From: a virus
Taxonomy: Duplodnaviria; Heunggongvirae; Uroviricota; Caudoviricetes
Direction: 5' to 3' (one strand)
Virus record (IMG/VR): IMGVR_UViG_2740892229_000011
Length of the DNA stretch: 64,000 bases
Both the position numbers and the translations under genes were made by a program. The notes under the pieces are model-generated. The model ran no database searches, was not told the DNA's origin, and saw only the letters and a list, made by a program, of their open reading frames with translations. Positions 1 to 60,290 of this stretch are shown piece after piece (positions within the stretch are counted from its first letter, which is position 1; each line of letters begins with the position of its first letter).

Positions 1-3000
1 CGTGCAGAATCCTCAAAAACGGCAGCCGCATCGTCCGCCAGTTCGGCAGCGTCATCGGCATCATCTGCGTCTGCTTCAAAAGATGAGGCGACCAGACAGG
101 CGTCAGCAGCGAAGGGCAGCGCCACGACGGCATCCACGAAAGCAACAGAGGCGGCAGGCAGTGCGACGGCAGCATCTCAGAGCAAAACTGCTGCTGAATC
201 CGCTGCGACCCGTGCGGAAGCTGCTGCTGATCGTGCTGAAGAGATTGCCGGTGCAGTTGCGATGGAAGACGCAAGCCTTACAACTAAAGGTGTTGTGAAA
301 CTTAGCAGTGCTGTCGACAGCACCAGTGAATCGCTGGCCGCAACGCCAAAAGCAGTTAAAGTAGTCAATGACAATGCGAACAGCAGGGTGCCATCTAACC
401 GAAAAATTAACGGGAAAGCACTGACTGCGGATATCACATTAACGCCGAAAGATATTGGTACTTTAAATTCAATAACGATGTCTTTCTCTGGCGGGGCCGG
501 GTGGTTCAAACTGGCTACTGTTACAATGCCACAAGCGAGTTCCATCGTTTACATCGCATTGATTGGTGGCGCTGGTTACAACGTCGGCTCCCCACATCAG
601 GCAGGCATTTCAGAACTGGTTCTACGAGCAGGCAATGGAAACCCCAAAGGGATTACAGGTGCTTTGTGGAAGCGTACAGCTGTCGGATTAACGAATTTCG
701 CCTGGATCAACACATCCGGCGATACATATGATATTTACGTTGAGATTGGCAATTATGCGACTCGTGTAAATATCCATTGGGATTGTACTGCAAATGCGAC
801 AGTTTCTATTTATACATCGCCAACATATTCAGCTAGTAAGCCTTCCAGCGTTACCGATGGTGTTGTTTATACGATGTATAGCACACATCAGAAACCGACG
901 CCGTTAGATATTGGAGCACTGCCAACAACCGGAGGAACAGTTTCAGGTCCGTTGTCTGTTACTGGTGGGATCACCGGAACATTAAATGGTAATGCAAGTA
1001 CAGCAACGAAATTGCAGACGGCAAGATCTATCGGTGGAGTTGGTTTCGACGGTTCTGCAAATATCAACCTTCCAGGTGTAAATACTACGGGTAATCAGAA
1101 CACCACTGGTAATGCTGCAACTGCTACAAAACTTCAGACGGCAAGAACTATCGGCGGCGTGAGCTTTGATGGTACTGCGAATATTAATTTGCCAGGTGTT
1201 AATACGACTGGTAATCAGAATACAACGGGCAACGCGGCTACTGCTACGAAGTTGCAGACTGCGCGTACTATCAATGGGGTGTCGTTTGACGGCTCGGCAA
1301 ATATTTCCTTGTCGCCAGCAAATATAGGTTGCCCGGCATCTCCTACTGGTTGGTTAACTACAGGAAGTAATGGCGGAGCAATAACAACAGCACAGTTAGT
1401 GACGTTATTGCAAAATAATGGAGCATTTAACACAAAGTCATGGATTGCTCGATGTGCTTGGGCCTATGCCAATAGTGCAACCATACCAAATAGTGAAACT
1501 GGTTGTGGCGTTATTCCATTGGCAGGAGCTGTTATAGAGGTATTTAATAACGGTAGTAGCTCAAACAATTATACGATCCGTATAACAACGGCCACAACGA
1601 CGAGTGTCTCTGGTGCTCTCACTAATGCGGAGTTTATCTATGTATTTAATGGCACAGATTATTCTCCGGGATGGCGAAGAGTATATAACACGAAAAACAA
1701 ACCAACAGCCTCTGATGTCGGTGCATTACCTCTTACCGGTGGTACATTATCTGGAGGTTTGACATCTTCTGGCGAGATCATTTCAAAATATGCAAATGGT
1801 TTCCGCATTGCTTACGGTAGCTTTGGGTTCTTTATCCGTAATGATGGATCGAACACATATTTCATGCTAACAGCATCAGGAGACACATTAGGTTCATGGA
1901 ACGGTTTGCGACCTATTACAATTAATAATACCAGCGGTGCTGTATCAATTGGTAATGGACTAAATGTGACTGGTGGCGTAAATGGTAGTTTGAACGGTAA
2001 TGCTTCAACAGCTACGAAGTTGCAAACAGCGAGAAACATCAATGGTGTTAAGTTTGATGGCTCAGGCGATATCAACATTAATACATTGGTATCTCGTGGC
2101 CGAGTTACGGCGTTAAGCGGCTCTACTCAAGGCACTGCTGGCATTCAAATGTACGAGGCGTACAACAATAGCTACCCGACCACGTATGGCAACGTATTGC
2201 ACATGAAAGGTGCGAGTGCTGCTGGTGAGGGCGAGTTGCTTATTGGCTGGAGTGGTACGAGCGGTGCACATGCGCCAGTTTTCATTCGCTCACGAAGAGA
2301 TACCACAGATGCGGCATGGTCAGCGTGGGCGCAGGTATATACTGCTAAGGATTCAATCCCTGGTGTGAATACAACCGGTAATCAGAATACTACTGGTAAT
2401 GCCGCAACAGCCACAAAATTGCAGACAGCAAGGAAAATTGCTGGTGTGGCGTTTGATGGCTCTGCCGATATTACTTTGACTGCGGCTAACCTTAATGCTT
2501 ATACGAAAACAGAGGTAACAAACCTTCTAAGTTCCTATGCAAGCAGATCATCACTGACAGGCTATAGTGGCAACCTGGATATTATTGCTGAAACACTGGT
2601 TGTCAAATCAGGCGGTAGTGGAGGGTTTGCTATATGGGATATTGGCACAACTACTAGCGGTGCCAATATGTACATTGATCCAAACCCTGGTATCAATACA
2701 GTTTGGCGTTCAACATCTTCAAGGCGCTATAAAAAGGATATTGAAACATTACAAGATCGATATGCTGATGAACTTTTGTCATTAAGACCTGTTTGGTATC
2801 GTTCAATTTGTCGAGGTGACCGAAAGGATTGGGGGTATTACGGCCTTATTGCTGAAGAGGTTGGTGAGATTGCCCCGCAATATGTCCATTGGCGTGAACC
2901 AACAAATAATGATTCTCCAGAAGATATTTCCTCAAATGGTATGGTCGCTGAAGGGGTGATGTATGAGCGTTTGGTTGTACCACTCATTCATCATATTCAG

Positions 3001-3057
3001 CAATTGACCAAAAGGGTTGAGGAGCTTGAAACGAAGTTAAATTCACCTAAAGAATAA
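1..3057 (+). CDS. Tail fibre protein, 5' end truncated by the window edge; C-terminal intramolecular-chaperone (peptidase S74-like) domain
   Basis: Frame 1 is open from nt 1 with no in-frame stop before the first ATG at 262, so the gene continues upstream. Ala/Ser-rich shaft; three tandem ~40-aa repeats 'NTTGNQNTTGNAATATKLQTAR.IGGV.FDG.ANINLPGV' with a fourth degenerate copy; C-terminal 'YKKDIETLQDRYADELLSLRPVWYR...GLIAEEVGEIAP' resembles auto-cleaving tail-fibre chaperone domains. Confidence 0.8.
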   Translation, partial: RAESSKTAAASSASSAASSASSASASKDEATRQASAAKGSATTASTKATEAAGSATAASQSKTAAESAATRAEAAADRAEEIAGAVAMEDASLTTKGVVKLSSAVDSTSESLAATPKAVKVVNDNANSRVPSNRKINGKALTADITLTPKDIGTLNSITMSFSGGAGWFKLATVTMPQASSIVYIALIGGAGYNVGSPHQAGISELVLRAGNGNPKGITGALWKRTAVGLTNFAWINTSGDTYDIYVEIGNYATRVNIHWDCTANATVSIYTSPTYSASKPSSVTDGVVYTMYSTHQKPTPLDIGALPTTGGTVSGPLSVTGGITGTLNGNASTATKLQTARSIGGVGFDGSANINLPGVNTTGNQNTTGNAATATKLQTARTIGGVSFDGTANINLPGVNTTGNQNTTGNAATATKLQTARTINGVSFDGSANISLSPANIGCPASPTGWLTTGSNGGAITTAQLVTLLQNNGAFNTKSWIARCAWAYANSATIPNSETGCGVIPLAGAVIEVFNNGSSSNNYTIRITTATTTSVSGALTNAEFIYVFNGTDYSPGWRRVYNTKNKPTASDVGALPLTGGTLSGGLTSSGEIISKYANGFRIAYGSFGFFIRNDGSNTYFMLTASGDTLGSWNGLRPITINNTSGAVSIGNGLNVTGGVNGSLNGNASTATKLQTARNINGVKFDGSGDININTLVSRGRVTALSGSTQGTAGIQMYEAYNNSYPTTYGNVLHMKGASAAGEGELLIGWSGTSGAHAPVFIRSRRDTTDAAWSAWAQVYTAKDSIPGVNTTGNQNTTGNAATATKLQTARKIAGVAFDGSADITLTAANLNAYTKTEVTNLLSSYASRSSLTGYSGNLDIIAETLVVKSGGSGGFAIWDIGTTTSGANMYIDPNPGINTVWRSTSSRRYKKDIETLQDRYADELLSLRPVWYRSICRGDRKDWGYYGLIAEEVGEIAPQYVHWREPTNNDSPEDISSNGMVAEGVMYERLVVPLIHHIQQLTKRVEELETKLNSPKE

Positions 3058-3117
3058 ACAACTTCAATCGGGGCTGGAACTAAACCAGCCCCTGCTTAAA
3101 AGTATAAGGATATCTTT

Positions 3118-3372
3118 ATGAGCTATGGTGCACAGGTATGGTCGCCATCAAGACAGGAGATGGTCGATGCGTTGGCCCCTGTTTATTACCTCGATTATTT
3201 TACTCCCTCTGGTTCTGGAAGTAGAACATATGAGGTTGAGGCGGGATTGGGAATCGACTATTACATAATGGACGTAACCAATGGGAAATACACAAGTCTT
3301 ACGGTTTCTGGAAATACCATTTCATGGTCTGGAGCTAGTGGCAATTTAAACATATTGGTTTTTCAAAAATAA
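3118..3372 (+). CDS. Hypothetical protein downstream of tail fibre
   Basis: 84-aa ORF, same strand, tightly spaced after tail-fibre stop; no recognisable motif. Confidence 0.4.
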   Translation: MSYGAQVWSPSRQEMVDALAPVYYLDYFTPSGSGSRTYEVEAGLGIDYYIMDVTNGKYTSLTVSGNTISWSGASGNLNILVFQK

Positions 3373-3980
3373 TGTACGGAAGCAAGATATATCGATCTGA
3401 CGGGAAGGTCTGGATGTCTCCTTCTTTGTCTCCTATCGTTTTTCAGAGAAAGCAGGTTGTTTCTTTGTCTGGCGGGACAGAGTTTAACACCCAAATATCT
3501 CCAGATCGTTCACCGATGATTTTTGTTGCCTATTCGAAAGCTGTTTCATTAATAGCCAACAGAATAGTGCGTAACAACCAGGTGATTTACAGTTTCGGAG
3601 GTCAGGGTAGCGACTCTAGTGCCACGATATACGTATTTTCGAAAGGTATAGCCAAAAAAGAAACTTGGGGCATGAGTTTTTTCAATGCACAAGGGGAGGA
3701 AATCTATAATACGGCAAATATCCCACTTTCATTTACCTTTCTTAATAATACGGAGTGGAACAGCTCTGGAGGGCATGTTTTTGATTACCCACCAGCGATA
3801 ATCCCAACATATGCGAATGTGTTCGCTGTTCCAGTACCGGGCGGAGCCATGACAATGGTTTATGGATATGCGGCATATGGAAATACTGTTAGCTCGATAT
3901 TCGTAAACCAACTTAATGGCGGCCATAGTTTTAGCGTAAATGGCAGAGTACCGGTAATAAATAGAAATCTGTATAACTGA
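3372..3980 (+). CDS. Hypothetical protein (tail-fibre-associated position)
   Basis: 202-aa ORF whose start overlaps the stop of the previous ORF; no recognisable motif. Confidence 0.4.
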   Translation: MYGSKIYRSDGKVWMSPSLSPIVFQRKQVVSLSGGTEFNTQISPDRSPMIFVAYSKAVSLIANRIVRNNQVIYSFGGQGSDSSATIYVFSKGIAKKETWGMSFFNAQGEEIYNTANIPLSFTFLNNTEWNSSGGHVFDYPPAIIPTYANVFAVPVPGGAMTMVYGYAAYGNTVSSIFVNQLNGGHSFSVNGRVPVINRNLYN

Positions 3981-3987
3981 TGAGTAA

Positions 3988-4221
3988 ATGATGAAAAGAT
4001 TATTTCTAACAATAGCTGTTGTTCTCTCTCTTACTGGCTGCCAGAAATTGCCGACACCTATATGTTACGGTGAGGCTATCATTGGTGGACAGGAGACAGT
4101 CATACCCATATATGCTGTTAAAAAAGTGAACGACTATACCTTATACAAAGCGGGTAGCATCTATAACTGGCGATGGGTAGGAGTAGGTGCTTTCTCATCA
4201 GTCCGTTGCAATGTTGAATGA
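3988..4221 (+). CDS. Small lipoprotein
   Basis: N-terminus 'MMKRLFLTIAVVLSLTGCQ' is a signal peptide with lipobox LTGC. Confidence 0.5.
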   Translation: MMKRLFLTIAVVLSLTGCQKLPTPICYGEAIIGGQETVIPIYAVKKVNDYTLYKAGSIYNWRWVGVGAFSSVRCNVE

Positions 4222-20744: not shown

Positions 20745-21522
20745 AAACACAATGATAAGTATTTACTTACTTATCTTTTATGTATAAGATGACTTTGTTT
20801 TCGTTGAGACGCGACTGTTTGAACTTAAATACAAGTGCAAACGAAGAAGTCTATCTGGCAGTAGCCTAATAAGCCAAACACCAGCGAGGTCAGTTTCCAG
20901 CCTCGTTACCGAAATGGGACACACTGAGCGAGTGTGATTGCAGAACGCAGGAGGGAACATTCATGTTCCCTCCGATGAAGTAACAGAATGGGCGGTTGGT
21001 ATATTTTCAACTCCATATGACTCCCGGATTCTTAGCCACTGACCGCCCATCCTGTTACGTCATTTTGTTCAATTATGTCGTTTATACTGGGTTAAAAAGC
21101 GGCGACGTAGCCCGGCTGGTATGGTTAGCCAGCACACAACGTTGAGGCCATTACATTTTTATCAATTCTAAGGTTCTATTCACAGAGATACCGGCGAGCG
21201 TTGATATGTAACATGTTGGGCAAACATTCAATCGGAGTAGTGGCCTCAACGTTGTGAAGACAGGATTGTTGTGTAGGTTTAACCACTGTTGCCATTGGTG
21301 CCTGTTTTCACAACAAATGATTCCATACATCACATTGTATAAATTACAAAGTAGGTGCTGTCCTCAGAAACATCATCTACTTAAAGATTTTGCCTTCTAC
21401 TATTGAGCGAAGTCGAAAGCGTCTGGCACTAACGAAAAGTGCAAGTAGCGGTGCGTTTCCTGGCAGAAACTAAACCGTCGCGATTGGCACTGTTGAGTAA
21501 TAAATACTGGCAGTGCTGAATT

Positions 21523-57464: not shown

Positions 57465-58058
57465 ATGATTGCAGCCGAAAAAATCAAACAGCGAAAGCGC
57501 GACAACTCTCTTCGTGACCTCTGGAGAACACCTGATTGGCTGTTTTCTGCCATTCAACGTTATCTTGGAGTGACATTTGATGTTGACGTTGCCTGCAACA
57601 AGGACAATGCAAAGCTGCCTATTTTCATAGGCGTTGAGCGCGATGCTTTGAAATCTGAATGGGGGCAGCCAGGTACAATTGCCTTCCTCAATCCACCCTA
57701 CTCCAAAATCTCCCCCTGGATTGATGCGGCTATACGTGAGCAGGCTCGCGGAGTTACAACAGTGATGCTAATTCCTCAATCCCTCGATACAAAGTGGTAT
57801 GAGCGTGCAACAGAGTGTGCGAATGAGACGATTATTCTGTCTGGTGGCCGCGTAGCGTTTGTCGAGCCTGACGTCAATTTGGGTCAGGTAGAAGTAAACA
57901 TCAACCCCGGTGGCAGTATGCTCGTTGTTTTTCGAGGATTCTGTCAGGACGCTGGGCACTCTATAAGCAAGATCCCTTTGGACGTCATGAAAAGTCTGGG
58001 AGGGTATGATCCTGCGAATGTGATCAGGAAAAAAAGACCATCAAAGAAGGCTGCTTAG
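57465..58058 (+). CDS. Phage-type DNA N6-adenine methyltransferase (Dam-like)
   Basis: 'FLNPPYSKISPWIDAA' (NPPY catalytic motif); 197 aa. Confidence 0.7.
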   Translation: MIAAEKIKQRKRDNSLRDLWRTPDWLFSAIQRYLGVTFDVDVACNKDNAKLPIFIGVERDALKSEWGQPGTIAFLNPPYSKISPWIDAAIREQARGVTTVMLIPQSLDTKWYERATECANETIILSGGRVAFVEPDVNLGQVEVNINPGGSMLVVFRGFCQDAGHSISKIPLDVMKSLGGYDPANVIRKKRPSKKAA

Positions 58059-58080
58059 TTTGTTCTGGCGTCTGTAATTA

Positions 58081-58150
58081 GCCTGCTTCTGTATATAAAT
58101 AACTACATATTAATTATTAATATACGGAAGCAGGCTGTTTTATATCAGAG
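58081..58150 (+). terminator. Long AT-loop hairpin (terminator-like); second copy of the element at 10038-10095
   Basis: 'gcctgcttctgtatata...tatacggaagcaggc' then 'tgtttt'; near-identical stem sequence at 10038-10091. Confidence 0.5.
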
Positions 58151-58218
58151 ACTCCCAGACCTGAACACCACTACAGAATCCACTAGAACCCCTTCCCAGA
58201 CGCTTTAAAATCGATTTT

Positions 58219-58473
58219 ATGAACCACTTTAAGGAAACCAACATGTCATACCCGACTAATGTCGTTGCGCTCGTAGAGAGCGATTTTCTGGCCCAGGCTC
58301 GTGAAATGATGAAAGATCGTGAGCAGGCTTTCAACTTGTACGAGTGGGCAATTAAGTGCTTGCATCTTGGCGAGCATCGCGAACTTGTTGAACAGCTTTT
58401 AGGTGAGTTGATCAATGAGGTGTTTGCCTTGAATGTTCAACTACATGGTCGAGAAAATAATCAATCAAAATGA
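58219..58473 (+). CDS. Hypothetical small protein
   Basis: 84-aa ORF. Confidence 0.4.
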   Translation: MNHFKETNMSYPTNVVALVESDFLAQAREMMKDREQAFNLYEWAIKCLHLGEHRELVEQLLGELINEVFALNVQLHGRENNQSK

Positions 58474-59056
58474 TAGATAAGTACAAACTATTCATAAAGT
58501 GAATTGTAAGTGCTAAGATCTGATAGTTTCCAGTCGTAGACTGGAGGCTCGACCTGATGGGTGGGGGTAAGCGTCACTGGCGTCAGGTTTAAAAAAGCTC
58601 ACTACCAGCGTAGAACCGGTGCCGTATAGGTGTCGGGGAAGGGGGAACCAAAGTGAGCGGAGACAAGGGTCACTTTATGATTGTCGAGTCTGGGGTGTTT
58701 CGAGAGGTTGAATCCAGTACTCCCCTTCATAAAGTGTGGGAAGATCTCGGTTCTGGGGTGCTGTCATCCATAACTTCCCAAGTCTAAGCTGGCAGTAGAC
58801 TTAGACCATAGCTTTTCAGGTTATGAAACGACCAGGTTGGTGAGGAATTTTATACTCACCTCCCTGGGAGAGTATTACCTGAAAAGACAACCTCTCACTT
58901 CGTTCGAGGTGAACTTCACTCACTTCGTTCGTTCAGTTCAGGTTTATAAAAACCTGTTCTGGGAAGTAATTTGTTTATTTTAATAATTATTAACACGCAC
59001 GCGTGTGCGCACGCGCGAGGAAAAAAATCGGCGCGGCGCTTGATTCAGGAGTTTAT

Positions 59057-59647
59057 ATGACGACGAAGACACCAGCCCGATCGCAAGCAAAAACTCGCAA
59101 AAAAGCCAAAAACAAAAATTCTCCCCGCACCAATCCCACAACGCCTGTCGTAGAGTTCAATCCCCAGCTTAAAACCGTGAAAATCTTCAGTGATGGCTCT
59201 TGCCTTAAAAATCCGGGTGGCCCGGGCGGTTACGGTATCGTTCTTCAGTATCGTGGAGAGGAACGCGAGTTCTCAGATGGTTTTCATAGCACCACCAATA
59301 ACCGCATGGAGATGATGGGGGCACTTATCGGGCTGGAGCGTTTGAAATATCCATGCAACGTTATTTTGCACTCTGATAGCCAGTATCTGAAAAACGGCAT
59401 GACACAGTGGATGAAATGGTGGAAACGCAATGGATGGATGACTTCTGACAAAAAACCGGTAAAGAATGTTGATCTGTGGAAGCGTCTGGATGAGGCCGCA
59501 AGTCGACATAATGTTCGCTGGAAGTGGGTTAAAGGTCACGCCGGGCATCGTGAAAATGAAATATGTGATCGACTCGCGAAGATCGCAGCTTTTTCAGCAG
59601 CAGATATGCCTCACAAGAAAGATATTGGTTTTGTTTATAACAAGTAG
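59057..59647 (+). CDS. rnhA: Ribonuclease HI
   Basis: '[23 protein letters not shown]', '[10 protein letters not shown]', '[23 protein letters not shown]', '[22 protein letters not shown]' match RNase H family signatures; start set at ATG 59057 after 'aggag'. Confidence 0.8.
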
Positions 59648-59795
59648 TAAGTAAGTGTTTACCTATCATTTTAAATCATGTATCTTATCGGCGTCAGGAT
59701 GACAATGTGTCGGTAAGACACAGTTCCAGGATGGAACGAGAAAGGCGGCTGGCAATCGCCAGCCGCAACTCTTTCTGACACTGGATGGGGTCCAC

Positions 59796-60290
59796 ATGGC
59801 ACGTCAAACCTATTTCACTTCTGCAACTAAACGTCCTCGTTCTTTACGTCAAATTTTGGCCGAATTATTTAGCGGTCGTGTTATGTCACGTCTTGATGAA
59901 CTAGAGACTACCGTTCGGTTGCTGAATGAACGTTTAGATAATCAAGCGTCAGTTGTTGCGAACGTGGGGGCGATTGTTGCCTCTGGTTCTTCACGCGAAG
60001 CGAAAAATGCACGGCCTTTAGTGAAGGAGAAAAACAACAAGGACAGTTCGAATGGAAAATTTTCAAAGAAAGAGGCTGAAACCAATGGCCTACGTTCTCA
60101 TTATAGTTTCACTGGCGACGGTAGCCGTTCCAGCCGGTCAGTGCCTTTTGATGCCGGATTCATCCATCACCACACCTTCGTCGACGACAATTACCACCAC
60201 TCCAGTGGAGCGTCCTGTCACTCTGGATGGGATGGCGGTGGATGCGATACCTCAAGTTCATCCAGTTACTCAGGATCATGCTGTGACTAA
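59796..60290 (+). CDS. Hypothetical protein with Ser/Cys-rich C-terminus
   Basis: 164-aa ORF; low-complexity tail. Confidence 0.3.
   Translation: MARQTYFTSATKRPRSLRQILAELFSGRVMSRLDELETTVRLLNERLDNQASVVANVGAIVASGSSREAKNARPLVKEKNNKDSSNGKFSKKEAETNGLRSHYSFTGDGSRSSRSVPFDAGFIHHHTFVDDNYHHSSGASCHSGWDGGGCDTSSSSSYSGSCCD

Follow-up and report, generated by a model that had tools for sequence, protein, structure and literature searches.

The DNA analyzed here, a stretch of 64,000 nt (64 kb; referred to as the window), is part of an SSU5/pHCM2-type phage-plasmid of Escherichia coli. Over a tested 1.7 kb, the window is 100% identical to plasmid NZ_CP027358.1. Phages PhiR41_1, Cyrano, and CMS-2020a match it at 98% identity. 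The locus under study is a gap (58474-59056) between a small conserved gene, orf84, and the RNase HI gene, rnhA; Salmonella phage SSU5 and Klebsiella phage-plasmids are 77 to 81% identical to the window across the gap plus flanking genes. The neighborhood is a co-oriented replication and nucleotide-metabolism block with the order SbcCD-like, NrdAB, ThyA, DHFR, DnaQ-like exonuclease, Dam, small ORF, gap, and RNase HI, and a RepB-type plasmid initiator lies 17 kb upstream of the gap. As the original prediction held, no ORF of at least 60 codons lies inside the gap on either strand (longest, 48 and 44 amino acids [aa] on the + strand and 42 aa on the - strand). The only longer frame touching it arises when the RNase HI ORF is extended to GTG-59003; that gene starts at the ATG at 59057, preceded by an AGGAG Shine-Dalgarno sequence; the orf84 product is 76 aa when counted from the conserved ATG. 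The description of the segment as GC rich did not hold for the whole, which has 46.0% GC compared with 45.7% in the window. GC richness is confined to the 5' half (58547-58760; 53.7% GC, GC skew of +0.30), with 42% GC in the 3' half. The gap lacks annotation in every relative examined except Cyrano, where a 44-aa ORF (CYRAN_81) has been called, and is unannotated in 232/232 complete E. coli genomes carrying it.

The gap contains an element with a sharply conserved block from approximately 58546 to 58975. Alignment of 65 sequences showed that the core (58547-59030) retained 84 to 91% identity where dam, orf84, and rnhA were at 72 to 79%, and other spacers in those lineages retained only 44 to 67%. 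The gap alone matched plasmids of Klebsiella, Salmonella, Enterobacter, and Citrobacter at 88 to 92% identity by BLAST, and the element itself is 84 to 96% identical to its Salmonella, Klebsiella, and Enterobacter relatives. When the 64 kb was compared with complete SSU5 and Klebsiella pJN2-26 in sliding 300-nt segments, the top 4 of 697 all fell within the element, at 94 to 96% (SSU5) and 89 to 94% (pJN2-26) identity, where the median segment reached 77.7% and the 99th percentile lay at 90.3%. The element is the most conserved and slowest-evolving part of the SSU5-type phage-plasmid, and positions 58873-58941 are almost invariant across 86 distinct copies. Identity declines stepwise by clade (97 to 100, 90 to 91, 84 to 86, and ∼70%) in parallel with the flanking genes, which favors slow vertical descent over recent exchange.

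The element was present in 4.3% (232/5,426) of complete E. coli genomes, in 687 PLSDB plasmids, among them S. Typhi CT18 pHCM2 and many K. pneumoniae plasmids, and in 12 deposited phages. A 20-mer search of IMG/VR (75 contigs), a structure-aware degenerate pattern applied to metagenomes (54 contigs of ∼110 kb, from human gut), and a search of GTDB genomes by Orf84 synteny (2 Kluyvera) retrieved only SSU5-like sequences, with no member beyond this phage-plasmid group. The sequence diversity of the element is confined to Enterobacteriaceae phage-plasmids. Divergent members were reached via homologues of the upstream small protein; by our numbering of relatives, they comprise an Enterobacter clade (L219-221; ∼70% identity), L229, L223, L230, and a Buttiauxella plasmid (L232). 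A covariance model of the 5' domain (R1) finds the divergent member L222 at 88 bits. One relative (L224) was dropped as a C-to-T (bisulfite-type) assembly. In L225-228, whose Orf84 is 70% identical, an unrelated 713-nt gap occupies the locus, with no match to R1, Rfam, or PLSDB.

The conserved sequence does not behave as a coding region. Variable sites are spread evenly over the three codon positions in the element (38/33/33), compared with 72/37/174 in dam, 37/20/72 in orf84, and 63/54/169 in rnhA, and the longest ORF changes position and strand between relatives. Comparison with relatives, proposed as a way of finding a pseudogenized ORF, revealed neither a conserved ORF nor codon periodicity. 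Because codon-position bias is absent and no relative has an intact gene at the locus, the suggestion of a decayed gene is rejected.

Structure prediction and covariation both point to a folded RNA. The minimum free energy of the segment is -169 kcal/mol on the + strand (z of -4.8 versus shuffles), 29 kcal/mol better than on the - strand (-140 kcal/mol). For 33 close sequences, RNAalifold returned 128 pairs in 17 helices, with 99.5% of cells paired and 8 compensatory pairs, compared with 0 to 2 in slid controls. Across 15 diverse sequences, 98.1% of cells were paired and 36 of the 89 tested pairs had changed on both sides; slid controls gave 2 to 6 such pairs, and shuffles of the same set gave 20.4 ± 2.0, with 0/500 reaching 36. 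The covariation analysis proposed for this segment thus supports the fold beyond its controls. Among the consensus pairs, 16/128 are G-U on the + strand and would be A-C on the other. Because the G-U pairs fit the + strand only and this strand also folds better, we assign the RNA to the + strand. The predicted fold has approximately 15 helices (Table 1) with variable terminal loops and with invariant internal loops and junctions, which, as read from the alignments, is the signature of an RNA expected to work via its tertiary fold. A large part of the 3' half is invariant and provides little covariation information.

Table 1. Features of the gap and its surroundings (positions in the window)
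Feature	Position	Strand	Basis
Small conserved gene, upstream neighbor (orf84)	58243..58473	+	phrog_5343, unknown function
Predicted sigma-70 promoter	58491..58519	+	Positional conservation across clades
Non-coding RNA, predicted transcript of ∼450 nt, ends approximate	58526..58975	+	Conservation, covariation, RNA-seq
5' terminal hairpin CCAGUC-GUA-GACUGG	58530..58544	+	Hairpin in every clade
5' domain	58547..58670	+	Closing helix GCUC/GGGU, P1, P2, inner hairpin
Domain P3, closing stacked helices CACUUUAUGA/UCAUAAAGUG	58671..58736	+	Covariation
Domain P4, UGGGAAG/CUUCCCA	58737..58780	+	Every cell paired, with 3 and 1 compensatory pairs
Hairpin P5, GUCUAAGCUG-GCAG-UAGACUUAGAC	58782..58806	+	5/10 pairs double-changed
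Domain P6/P7	58812..58886	+	Long-range helix CUUUUCAGGU (58812-58821) / ACCUGAAAAG (58877-58886)
Proposed pseudoknot, loop GAGG with CCUC	58704..58707 with 58891..58894	+	Complementarity, one compensatory event
Invariant C/U-rich strand ACAACCUCUCACUUCGUUCGAG	58887..58908	+	Clade comparison
Small hairpin GAGG-UGAA-CUUC	58906..58917	+	GAGG-GAAA-CCUC in divergent Enterobacter clade
3' hairpin CAGGUUU-AUAA-AAACCUG, flanks UUCAG/CUGGG	58934..58963	+	Pairing retained
A/U-rich tail, likely termination zone, sequence non-conserved	58964..58992	+	U-rich run
25-nt strictly alternating purine/pyrimidine tract, rnhA leader	58993..59017		Outside RNA
RNase HI gene (rnhA), downstream neighbor	59057..59647	+	Pfam RNase_H, E 9.8e-45

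The 5' terminal hairpin is retained with a clade-specific sequence (CCGGA.../GGCAGA.../UUCGA...). Within the 5' domain, compensatory pairs were found in P1 (58551-58589; 5 pairs), P2 (58598-58603/58652-58657; 3 pairs), and the inner hairpin (58617-58635; 3 pairs), and the motifs GGGUGGRGG, UACCAGCG, and GGGGARRGGGRGAA are invariant. The closing helix of P3 has 7/9 pairs changed on both sides and its inner helices have 2, 3, and 1; the apical hairpin is UCGA-GAGG-UUGA (58700-58711). P4 contains an invariant internal loop, AUCUCGGUUCUG, and the hairpin GGGUG-CUGU-CAUCC. The P5 stem varies among GUCUAAG/CUUAGAC, GCCUAAG/CUUAGGU, and ACCGGGA/UCUCGGU under an invariant apex, CUGGCA(G/U)U(A/G)GA. 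The long-range helix of P6/P7 is predicted at -11 to -18 kcal/mol, versus -5 for a competing local hairpin, and is kept by compensation: in L223, both sides carry a matching deletion (UUUUAGG/CCUAAAA), and L219 has UUUCUGG/CCAGAA. Inside it lies CCAGG-GGUGAG...CUCACC-CCUGG (58832-58867), with a variable apical loop and 2 compensatory pairs. Of the local stems originally pointed out, the GGUGAGG/CUCACC pairing (58839-58845/58855-58860) is a covarying helix of this domain, and a GC-rich palindrome falls outside the RNA.

The P3 loop segment GAGAGGUUG (58702-58710) is complementary at 9/9 positions to CAACCUCUC (58888-58896). At the four loop positions of the proposed pseudoknot, 98% of cells are paired, with a single G-C to U-A change, in L223; with this one compensatory event as support, the loop-strand pseudoknot probably locks the central domain. 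The strand ACAACCUCUCACUUCGUUCGAG is the same in all clades, including the ∼70% clade, apart from one U/C position and changes in L223. The stem of the 3' hairpin varies with pairing retained (CAGGGG/CCCCUG and CAGGGA/UCCUUG), and UUCUGGG (58957-58963) at its end is invariant in all clades, followed in each within 2 to 8 nt by a U-rich run. We detected no canonical intrinsic terminator at the 3' end of the RNA. Several candidate pairings were discarded. A helix from the first RNAalifold run (CGAGGUGA/UCACUUCG) is lost in the divergent Enterobacter clade, which has a short GAGG-tetraloop-CYUC hairpin instead, and neither the long-range pairing of AAGUGAG with either CUCACUU copy nor that of AUAACUUCCCA with UGGGAAGUAAU is kept in the divergent clade.

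Two further features of the original prediction do exist, each with a different meaning. The palindrome lies at 58993-59017, not at ∼58997-59020, and is a strictly alternating purine/pyrimidine tract in the rnhA leader, within a poorly conserved spacer, not a part of the structured RNA. Only one other run of at least 14 nt occurs in the 64 kb; relatives keep the alternation, not the palindromy, and the tract in L072 is not palindromic. The decamer ctggcagtag, said to be shared with a region upstream of a tRNA, does recur (58789-58798 and 20855-20864, both 2 nt from the positions first given), and its copy in the element sits in the P5 apex. The element has 41 direct 10-mer matches to the rest of the window, with ∼28 expected, so we attribute the shared decamer to chance.

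A promoter is predicted immediately upstream of the RNA, with a -35 element TTCATA (58491-58496), a 17-nt spacer, and an extended -10 element TGcTAAGAT (58511-58519). This candidate scored below the threshold of a consensus scan. In every clade, TT(T/C)A.. is followed after 17 to 18 nt by TGnTA(A/C/G)(A/C/G)AT at a constant distance from the core, in surroundings that are 42 to 62% identical. Transcription is predicted to start near 58526.

Published RNA-seq data for the Cyrano phage-plasmid in E. coli LF82 provide evidence of a transcript. Cyrano is 97 to 98% identical to the window at the element, and CYRAN_81 lies wholly inside it. CYRAN_81 was listed among "morons," its transcription in LB exceeding the local background 12-fold (PMC9928086). 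Its log2 fpkm values were 6.8/6.9 in LB overnight, 9.3/9.0 in condition B1, 6.9/6.9 in condition B6, and 9.0/8.2 at 1 h in macrophages, with the peak at 6 h in macrophages (10.35/10.3), whereas the flanking genes had values of 3.1 to 5.8 (small ORF) and 2.6 to 5.0 (rnhA) (PMC9928086, S1 Table). The CYRAN_81 signal is thus 12 to 40 times that of both flanking genes in all five conditions, the strand of these counts resting on the data set being stranded, and the transcript level falls 12- to 40-fold before rnhA. Because CYRAN_81 stands so far above both neighbors, we conclude that a discrete RNA is made in lysogeny. Taken together, four independent lines (conservation above that of the flanking genes, compensatory pairs with strand-specific G-U pairs, the promoter, and the transcript) bear out the original suggestion of a structured non-coding RNA, and we are highly confident that the locus is a genuine, new gene for such an RNA.

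The element lies directly upstream of rnhA, in the same orientation, in almost all relatives. An exception, in a single lineage, is the Buttiauxella plasmid CP110081, where rnhA and the next four genes (rnhA through terB) are replaced by an oppositely oriented Gabija system and rnhA is reduced to its leader plus five codons. The RNA in CP110081 is intact (504 bits) and has its own compensatory changes in P1; thus, the RNA is not tied to RNase HI. Conversely, phages L067 and L068 have an 80% identical RNase H and no RNA. The genes 3' of rnhA form a variable accessory hotspot, with Ant in SSU5, TerB/TciA in E. coli, and a Tad2-like protein in L219.

No known family accounts for the RNA. A scan of the whole window with 4227 models (Rfam 15) found only three tRNAs at the gathering threshold, and a permissive scan of 58000-59800 (E of ≤10) gave only noise-level matches to eukaryotic miRNAs and snoRNAs inside the element. 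ARAGORN detected no tRNA or tmRNA in the element, and our literature searches found no description of the RNA. Complementary and shared k-mers within the window were at chance level, with 0 matches of 13 nt or longer. When the RNA was paired with the rnhA start region by RNAduplex, the duplexes were long and riddled with loops, differed from clade to clade, and were uninformative.

In general character, the RNA resembles GOLLD, ROOL, OLE, and HEARO, which likewise exceed 400 nt and combine many covarying helices and invariant junctions or internal loops with variable terminal loops. It shares carriage by phages and prophages with GOLLD and ROOL, and as with these RNAs, the genomic context does not reveal a function. 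The likeness is limited to size, fold, and phage carriage, as there is no covariance-model match to GOLLD, ROOL, OLE, or HEARO. Unlike those RNAs, it is found in Enterobacteriaceae phage-plasmids, is expressed in lysogeny from what is predicted to be its own sigma-70 promoter, and is not located beside tRNA genes. GOLLD, ROOL, and OLE are reported to form homo-oligomeric RNA assemblies (PMC12286853). A second comparison is with the c4 RNA of P1/P7, CI of P4, and CB of N15, which are also RNAs of the prophage or plasmid state, made from a constitutive promoter and placed first in a rightward operon; in SSU5, the operon headed by the element includes an antirepressor gene (ant) a few genes downstream. 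However, C4-type RNAs are tRNA-like molecules of ∼70 to 80 nt that work through short stretches of antisense pairing, while the present RNA is six times larger, matches no model of that family, and is not complementary in any conserved way to the start sites downstream.

Several alternatives were weighed against this background. The existing annotation implies a small protein gene (or pseudogene), such as the 44-aa CYRAN_81 at 58653-58787, which is "expressed" in the published RNA-seq data. We regard this reading as close to excluded, since the CYRAN_81 frame has no codon-position bias (11/8/9), is interrupted by 1- to 2-nt indels in Klebsiella and other clades, and is missing from all other annotations examined, and since the longest ORF is not constant in place or strand among relatives. 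It is also highly improbable that the conserved object is not an RNA at all but a duplex DNA site for protein binding, packaging, or recombination, or a recently exchanged segment. The near invariance of 58873-58941, beyond what pairing needs, and two direct-repeat copies of CUCACUUCGUUCG would fit such a site. Intrastrand compensatory changes and one-strand G-U pairs are not expected of it, though; the stepwise fall in identity, parallel to that of the flanking genes, favors vertical descent at a slower rate, and a transcript exists in Cyrano.

Two further alternatives take the neighboring RNase HI gene as their starting point. In the first, the RNA would resemble ColE1 RNA II or a T4 origin transcript: it would anneal to its template, be processed by the neighboring RNase HI, and prime DNA synthesis at an R-loop origin. 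Like ColE1 RNA II, the RNA is a structured, G-rich, constitutively transcribed plasmid RNA in the 450- to 550-nt range, and RNase H, functionally linked in ColE1, is here physically adjacent. The G-rich 5' half (GC skew of +0.30, GGGGAAGGGGG), the position in a replication and nucleotide-metabolism module beside rnhA, and the A/T-rich stretch and Z-DNA-prone tract 3' of the RNA are in keeping with a primer. In contrast to ColE1, the plasmid has a separate replicon with its own RepB-type initiator 17 kb away, and neither an antisense RNA I partner nor conserved R-loop determinants are present: there is no Rfam RNAI match, the sole promoter-like site on the - strand (58532-58503) points away, and the G clusters are not conserved (GGGGAGAGGGAG in the divergent clade). 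Cumulative GC skew has no inflection at the element, intramolecular pairing is under selection over nearly the whole length, and the RNA persists without the phage rnhA. A primer role is therefore very unlikely. A cis-acting leader, in which a sensor of a ligand, protein, or RNA would control read-through into rnhA and the accessory genes with premature termination in lysogeny, deserves more consideration. The RNA lies immediately 5' of rnhA in the same orientation in nearly all relatives, and the combination of high leader and low gene signal is the pattern of an attenuated leader, both as for riboswitches and T-boxes. The E. coli sequence also offers alternative 3' pairings (duplicated CUCACUUCGUUCG and two copies of UGGGAAG), and conserved features, a GC hairpin and an A-run, lie upstream of the rnhA Shine-Dalgarno sequence. 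However, those alternative pairings that were tested (I6, I8, and I9) fail in divergent L219, a non-conserved spacer of 30 to 45 nt lies between the RNA and the leader elements of rnhA, and no riboswitch, T-box, leader, or aptamer family of Rfam was matched up to an E value of 10. With ∼430 nt and 15 helices, the RNA is much larger and more complex than any known cis-regulatory leader, judged by riboswitch and T-box sizes. It is kept intact where rnhA is deleted, and one would hardly expect the genome's most conserved part to exist for the sake of a dispensable RNase H. On balance, we consider a cis-acting leader unlikely.

The reading best supported is a stand-alone, trans-acting folded RNA or ribonucleoprotein (RNP) of the lysogenic state, from approximately 58526 to 58975 on the + strand, on account of its own predicted promoter, discrete expression, separability from rnhA, size and complexity, and top rank in conservation. 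We hold this reading to be probable, with appreciable room for doubt. With the phage maintained in plasmid form, host sigma-70 RNA polymerase would start at the extended -10 promoter, and the ∼450-nt transcript would fold into the 5' hairpin, a three-way 5' domain, and a central multihelix domain (P3 to P7), the latter probably locked by the GAGG/CCUC pseudoknot. The transcript would end in the A/U-rich zone ahead of the rnhA leader. Such an RNA may act in trans by virtue of its shape, serving as a scaffold that binds protein or forms an RNP, or possibly as a catalytic or self-assembling RNA; it would not be a simple antisense RNA, and it would be needed during lysogeny, in the plasmid state. 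We found no function, partner, or target of the RNA, and complementarity within the window did not exceed chance.

The RNA is of a known kind, the large structured non-coding RNA of mobile elements, and belongs to no known family. Large bacterial RNAs that combine many conserved helices with invariant junctions are rare (a few dozen classes); time and again they have proved to be ribozymes or RNP cores and, in recent work, self-assembling cages. The hosts here are genetically tractable and clinically relevant (E. coli, S. Typhi [pHCM2], and K. pneumoniae), and public RNA-seq data already display the RNA, which was interpreted there as a "moron" gene of 44 aa with induction in macrophages. Two annotations are corrected by the present assignment, namely, the CYRAN_81 ORF and rnhA starts that extend into the RNA. 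Finally, we tentatively raise the possibility of a new class of large, complex-folded RNA that would rank with GOLLD, ROOL, and OLE, as a ribozyme, a self-assembling RNA, or an RNP core needed for the plasmid-prophage lifestyle. If this is true, the RNA may have a role in maintenance, in immunity, or in host manipulation inside macrophages.

The starts of rnhA, the RNase HI gene, are placed too early in database records (window 59003-59056 here; 3844-4000 in the compared sequence L002). PGAP begins the gene at the GTG at 59003, and the SSU5 record carries a 765-nt coding sequence that extends into the structured RNA upstream. The conserved start is the ATG at 59057, which has an AGGAG Shine-Dalgarno sequence. 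The first 40 residues of the product are basic and weakly conserved. Within the rnhA leader lies a Z-DNA-prone tract of strict purine/pyrimidine alternation, with only one other alternating run of at least 14 nt in the 64 kb. In relatives, the alternation of this tract is kept and its palindromy is not.

A second, small ncRNA gene appears to occupy the spacer that separates rnhA from the next gene (59648-59795). The spacer is better conserved (76-85%) than rnhA itself, and its features are listed in the table. Besides the GGA motifs of the two hairpin loops, a third GGA falls at the Shine-Dalgarno sequence of the gene that follows. Against Rfam, the spacer gave a weak match to CsrB (E 0.048).

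Features in and around the structured RNA and rnhA (window positions)
Feature	Position	Detail
Near-palindrome	58476-58492	GGTAAGTAC(N)TTACC
RNA promoter region	58491-58521	TTCATAAAGTG...GTGCTAAGATCT
RNA-internal copy	58726-58747	TTCATAAAGTGTGGGAAGATCT
Alternating tract	58993-59017	25 nt, rnhA leader
GC hairpin, then A-run and Shine-Dalgarno	3' of alternating tract	
Promoter-like site	in 59648-59795	TTTACC-17-TATCTT
Two hairpins	in 59648-59795	AGGAU in loop; of the CsrA/RsmA-binding type
Hairpin	in 59648-59795	four covarying versions
Intrinsic terminator	59745-59766 plus U tract	covarying

At the other end of the structured RNA, its promoter region duplicates a segment internal to the RNA. This repeat is restricted to the E. 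coli clade, where the promoter looks as if it had been rebuilt out of a partial duplication. The near-palindrome, which is conserved at equivalent positions in other sequences, sits directly 3' of the stop codon of the small upstream ORF and adjoins the -35 element. It may serve as a weak terminator or bind a regulator.

One sequence, L224 (Logan SRR8137545), was left out as an artefact. Almost all C is read as T in this assembly, a pattern typical of bisulfite-type data, and its inclusion in alignments would produce false divergence.

A rarer lineage (L225-L228) has a 70% identical Orf84, the small gene 5' of the RNA, and two RNase H genes 3' of a gap. At the position equivalent to the RNA (2726-3437), this gap holds 713 nt of unrelated sequence, for which no match was found in Rfam or PLSDB and no hit with R1, the covariance model of the RNA's 5' domain. 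The folding stability of this sequence (z -4.7) matches that of the RNA studied, and the gap may represent a non-homologous RNA in the same position.

The region 3' of rnhA is an accessory hotspot. In the Buttiauxella plasmid CP110081, a Gabija-like pair (an OLD-type TOPRIM ATPase and a UvrD-like helicase; L233 10895-13659) lies directly 3' of the RNA, in place of rnhA through terB. Elsewhere, the content of the hotspot varies: SSU5 has Ant, E. coli has TerB/DUF3927, and L219, a member of the divergent Enterobacter clade, has a Tad2-like protein.
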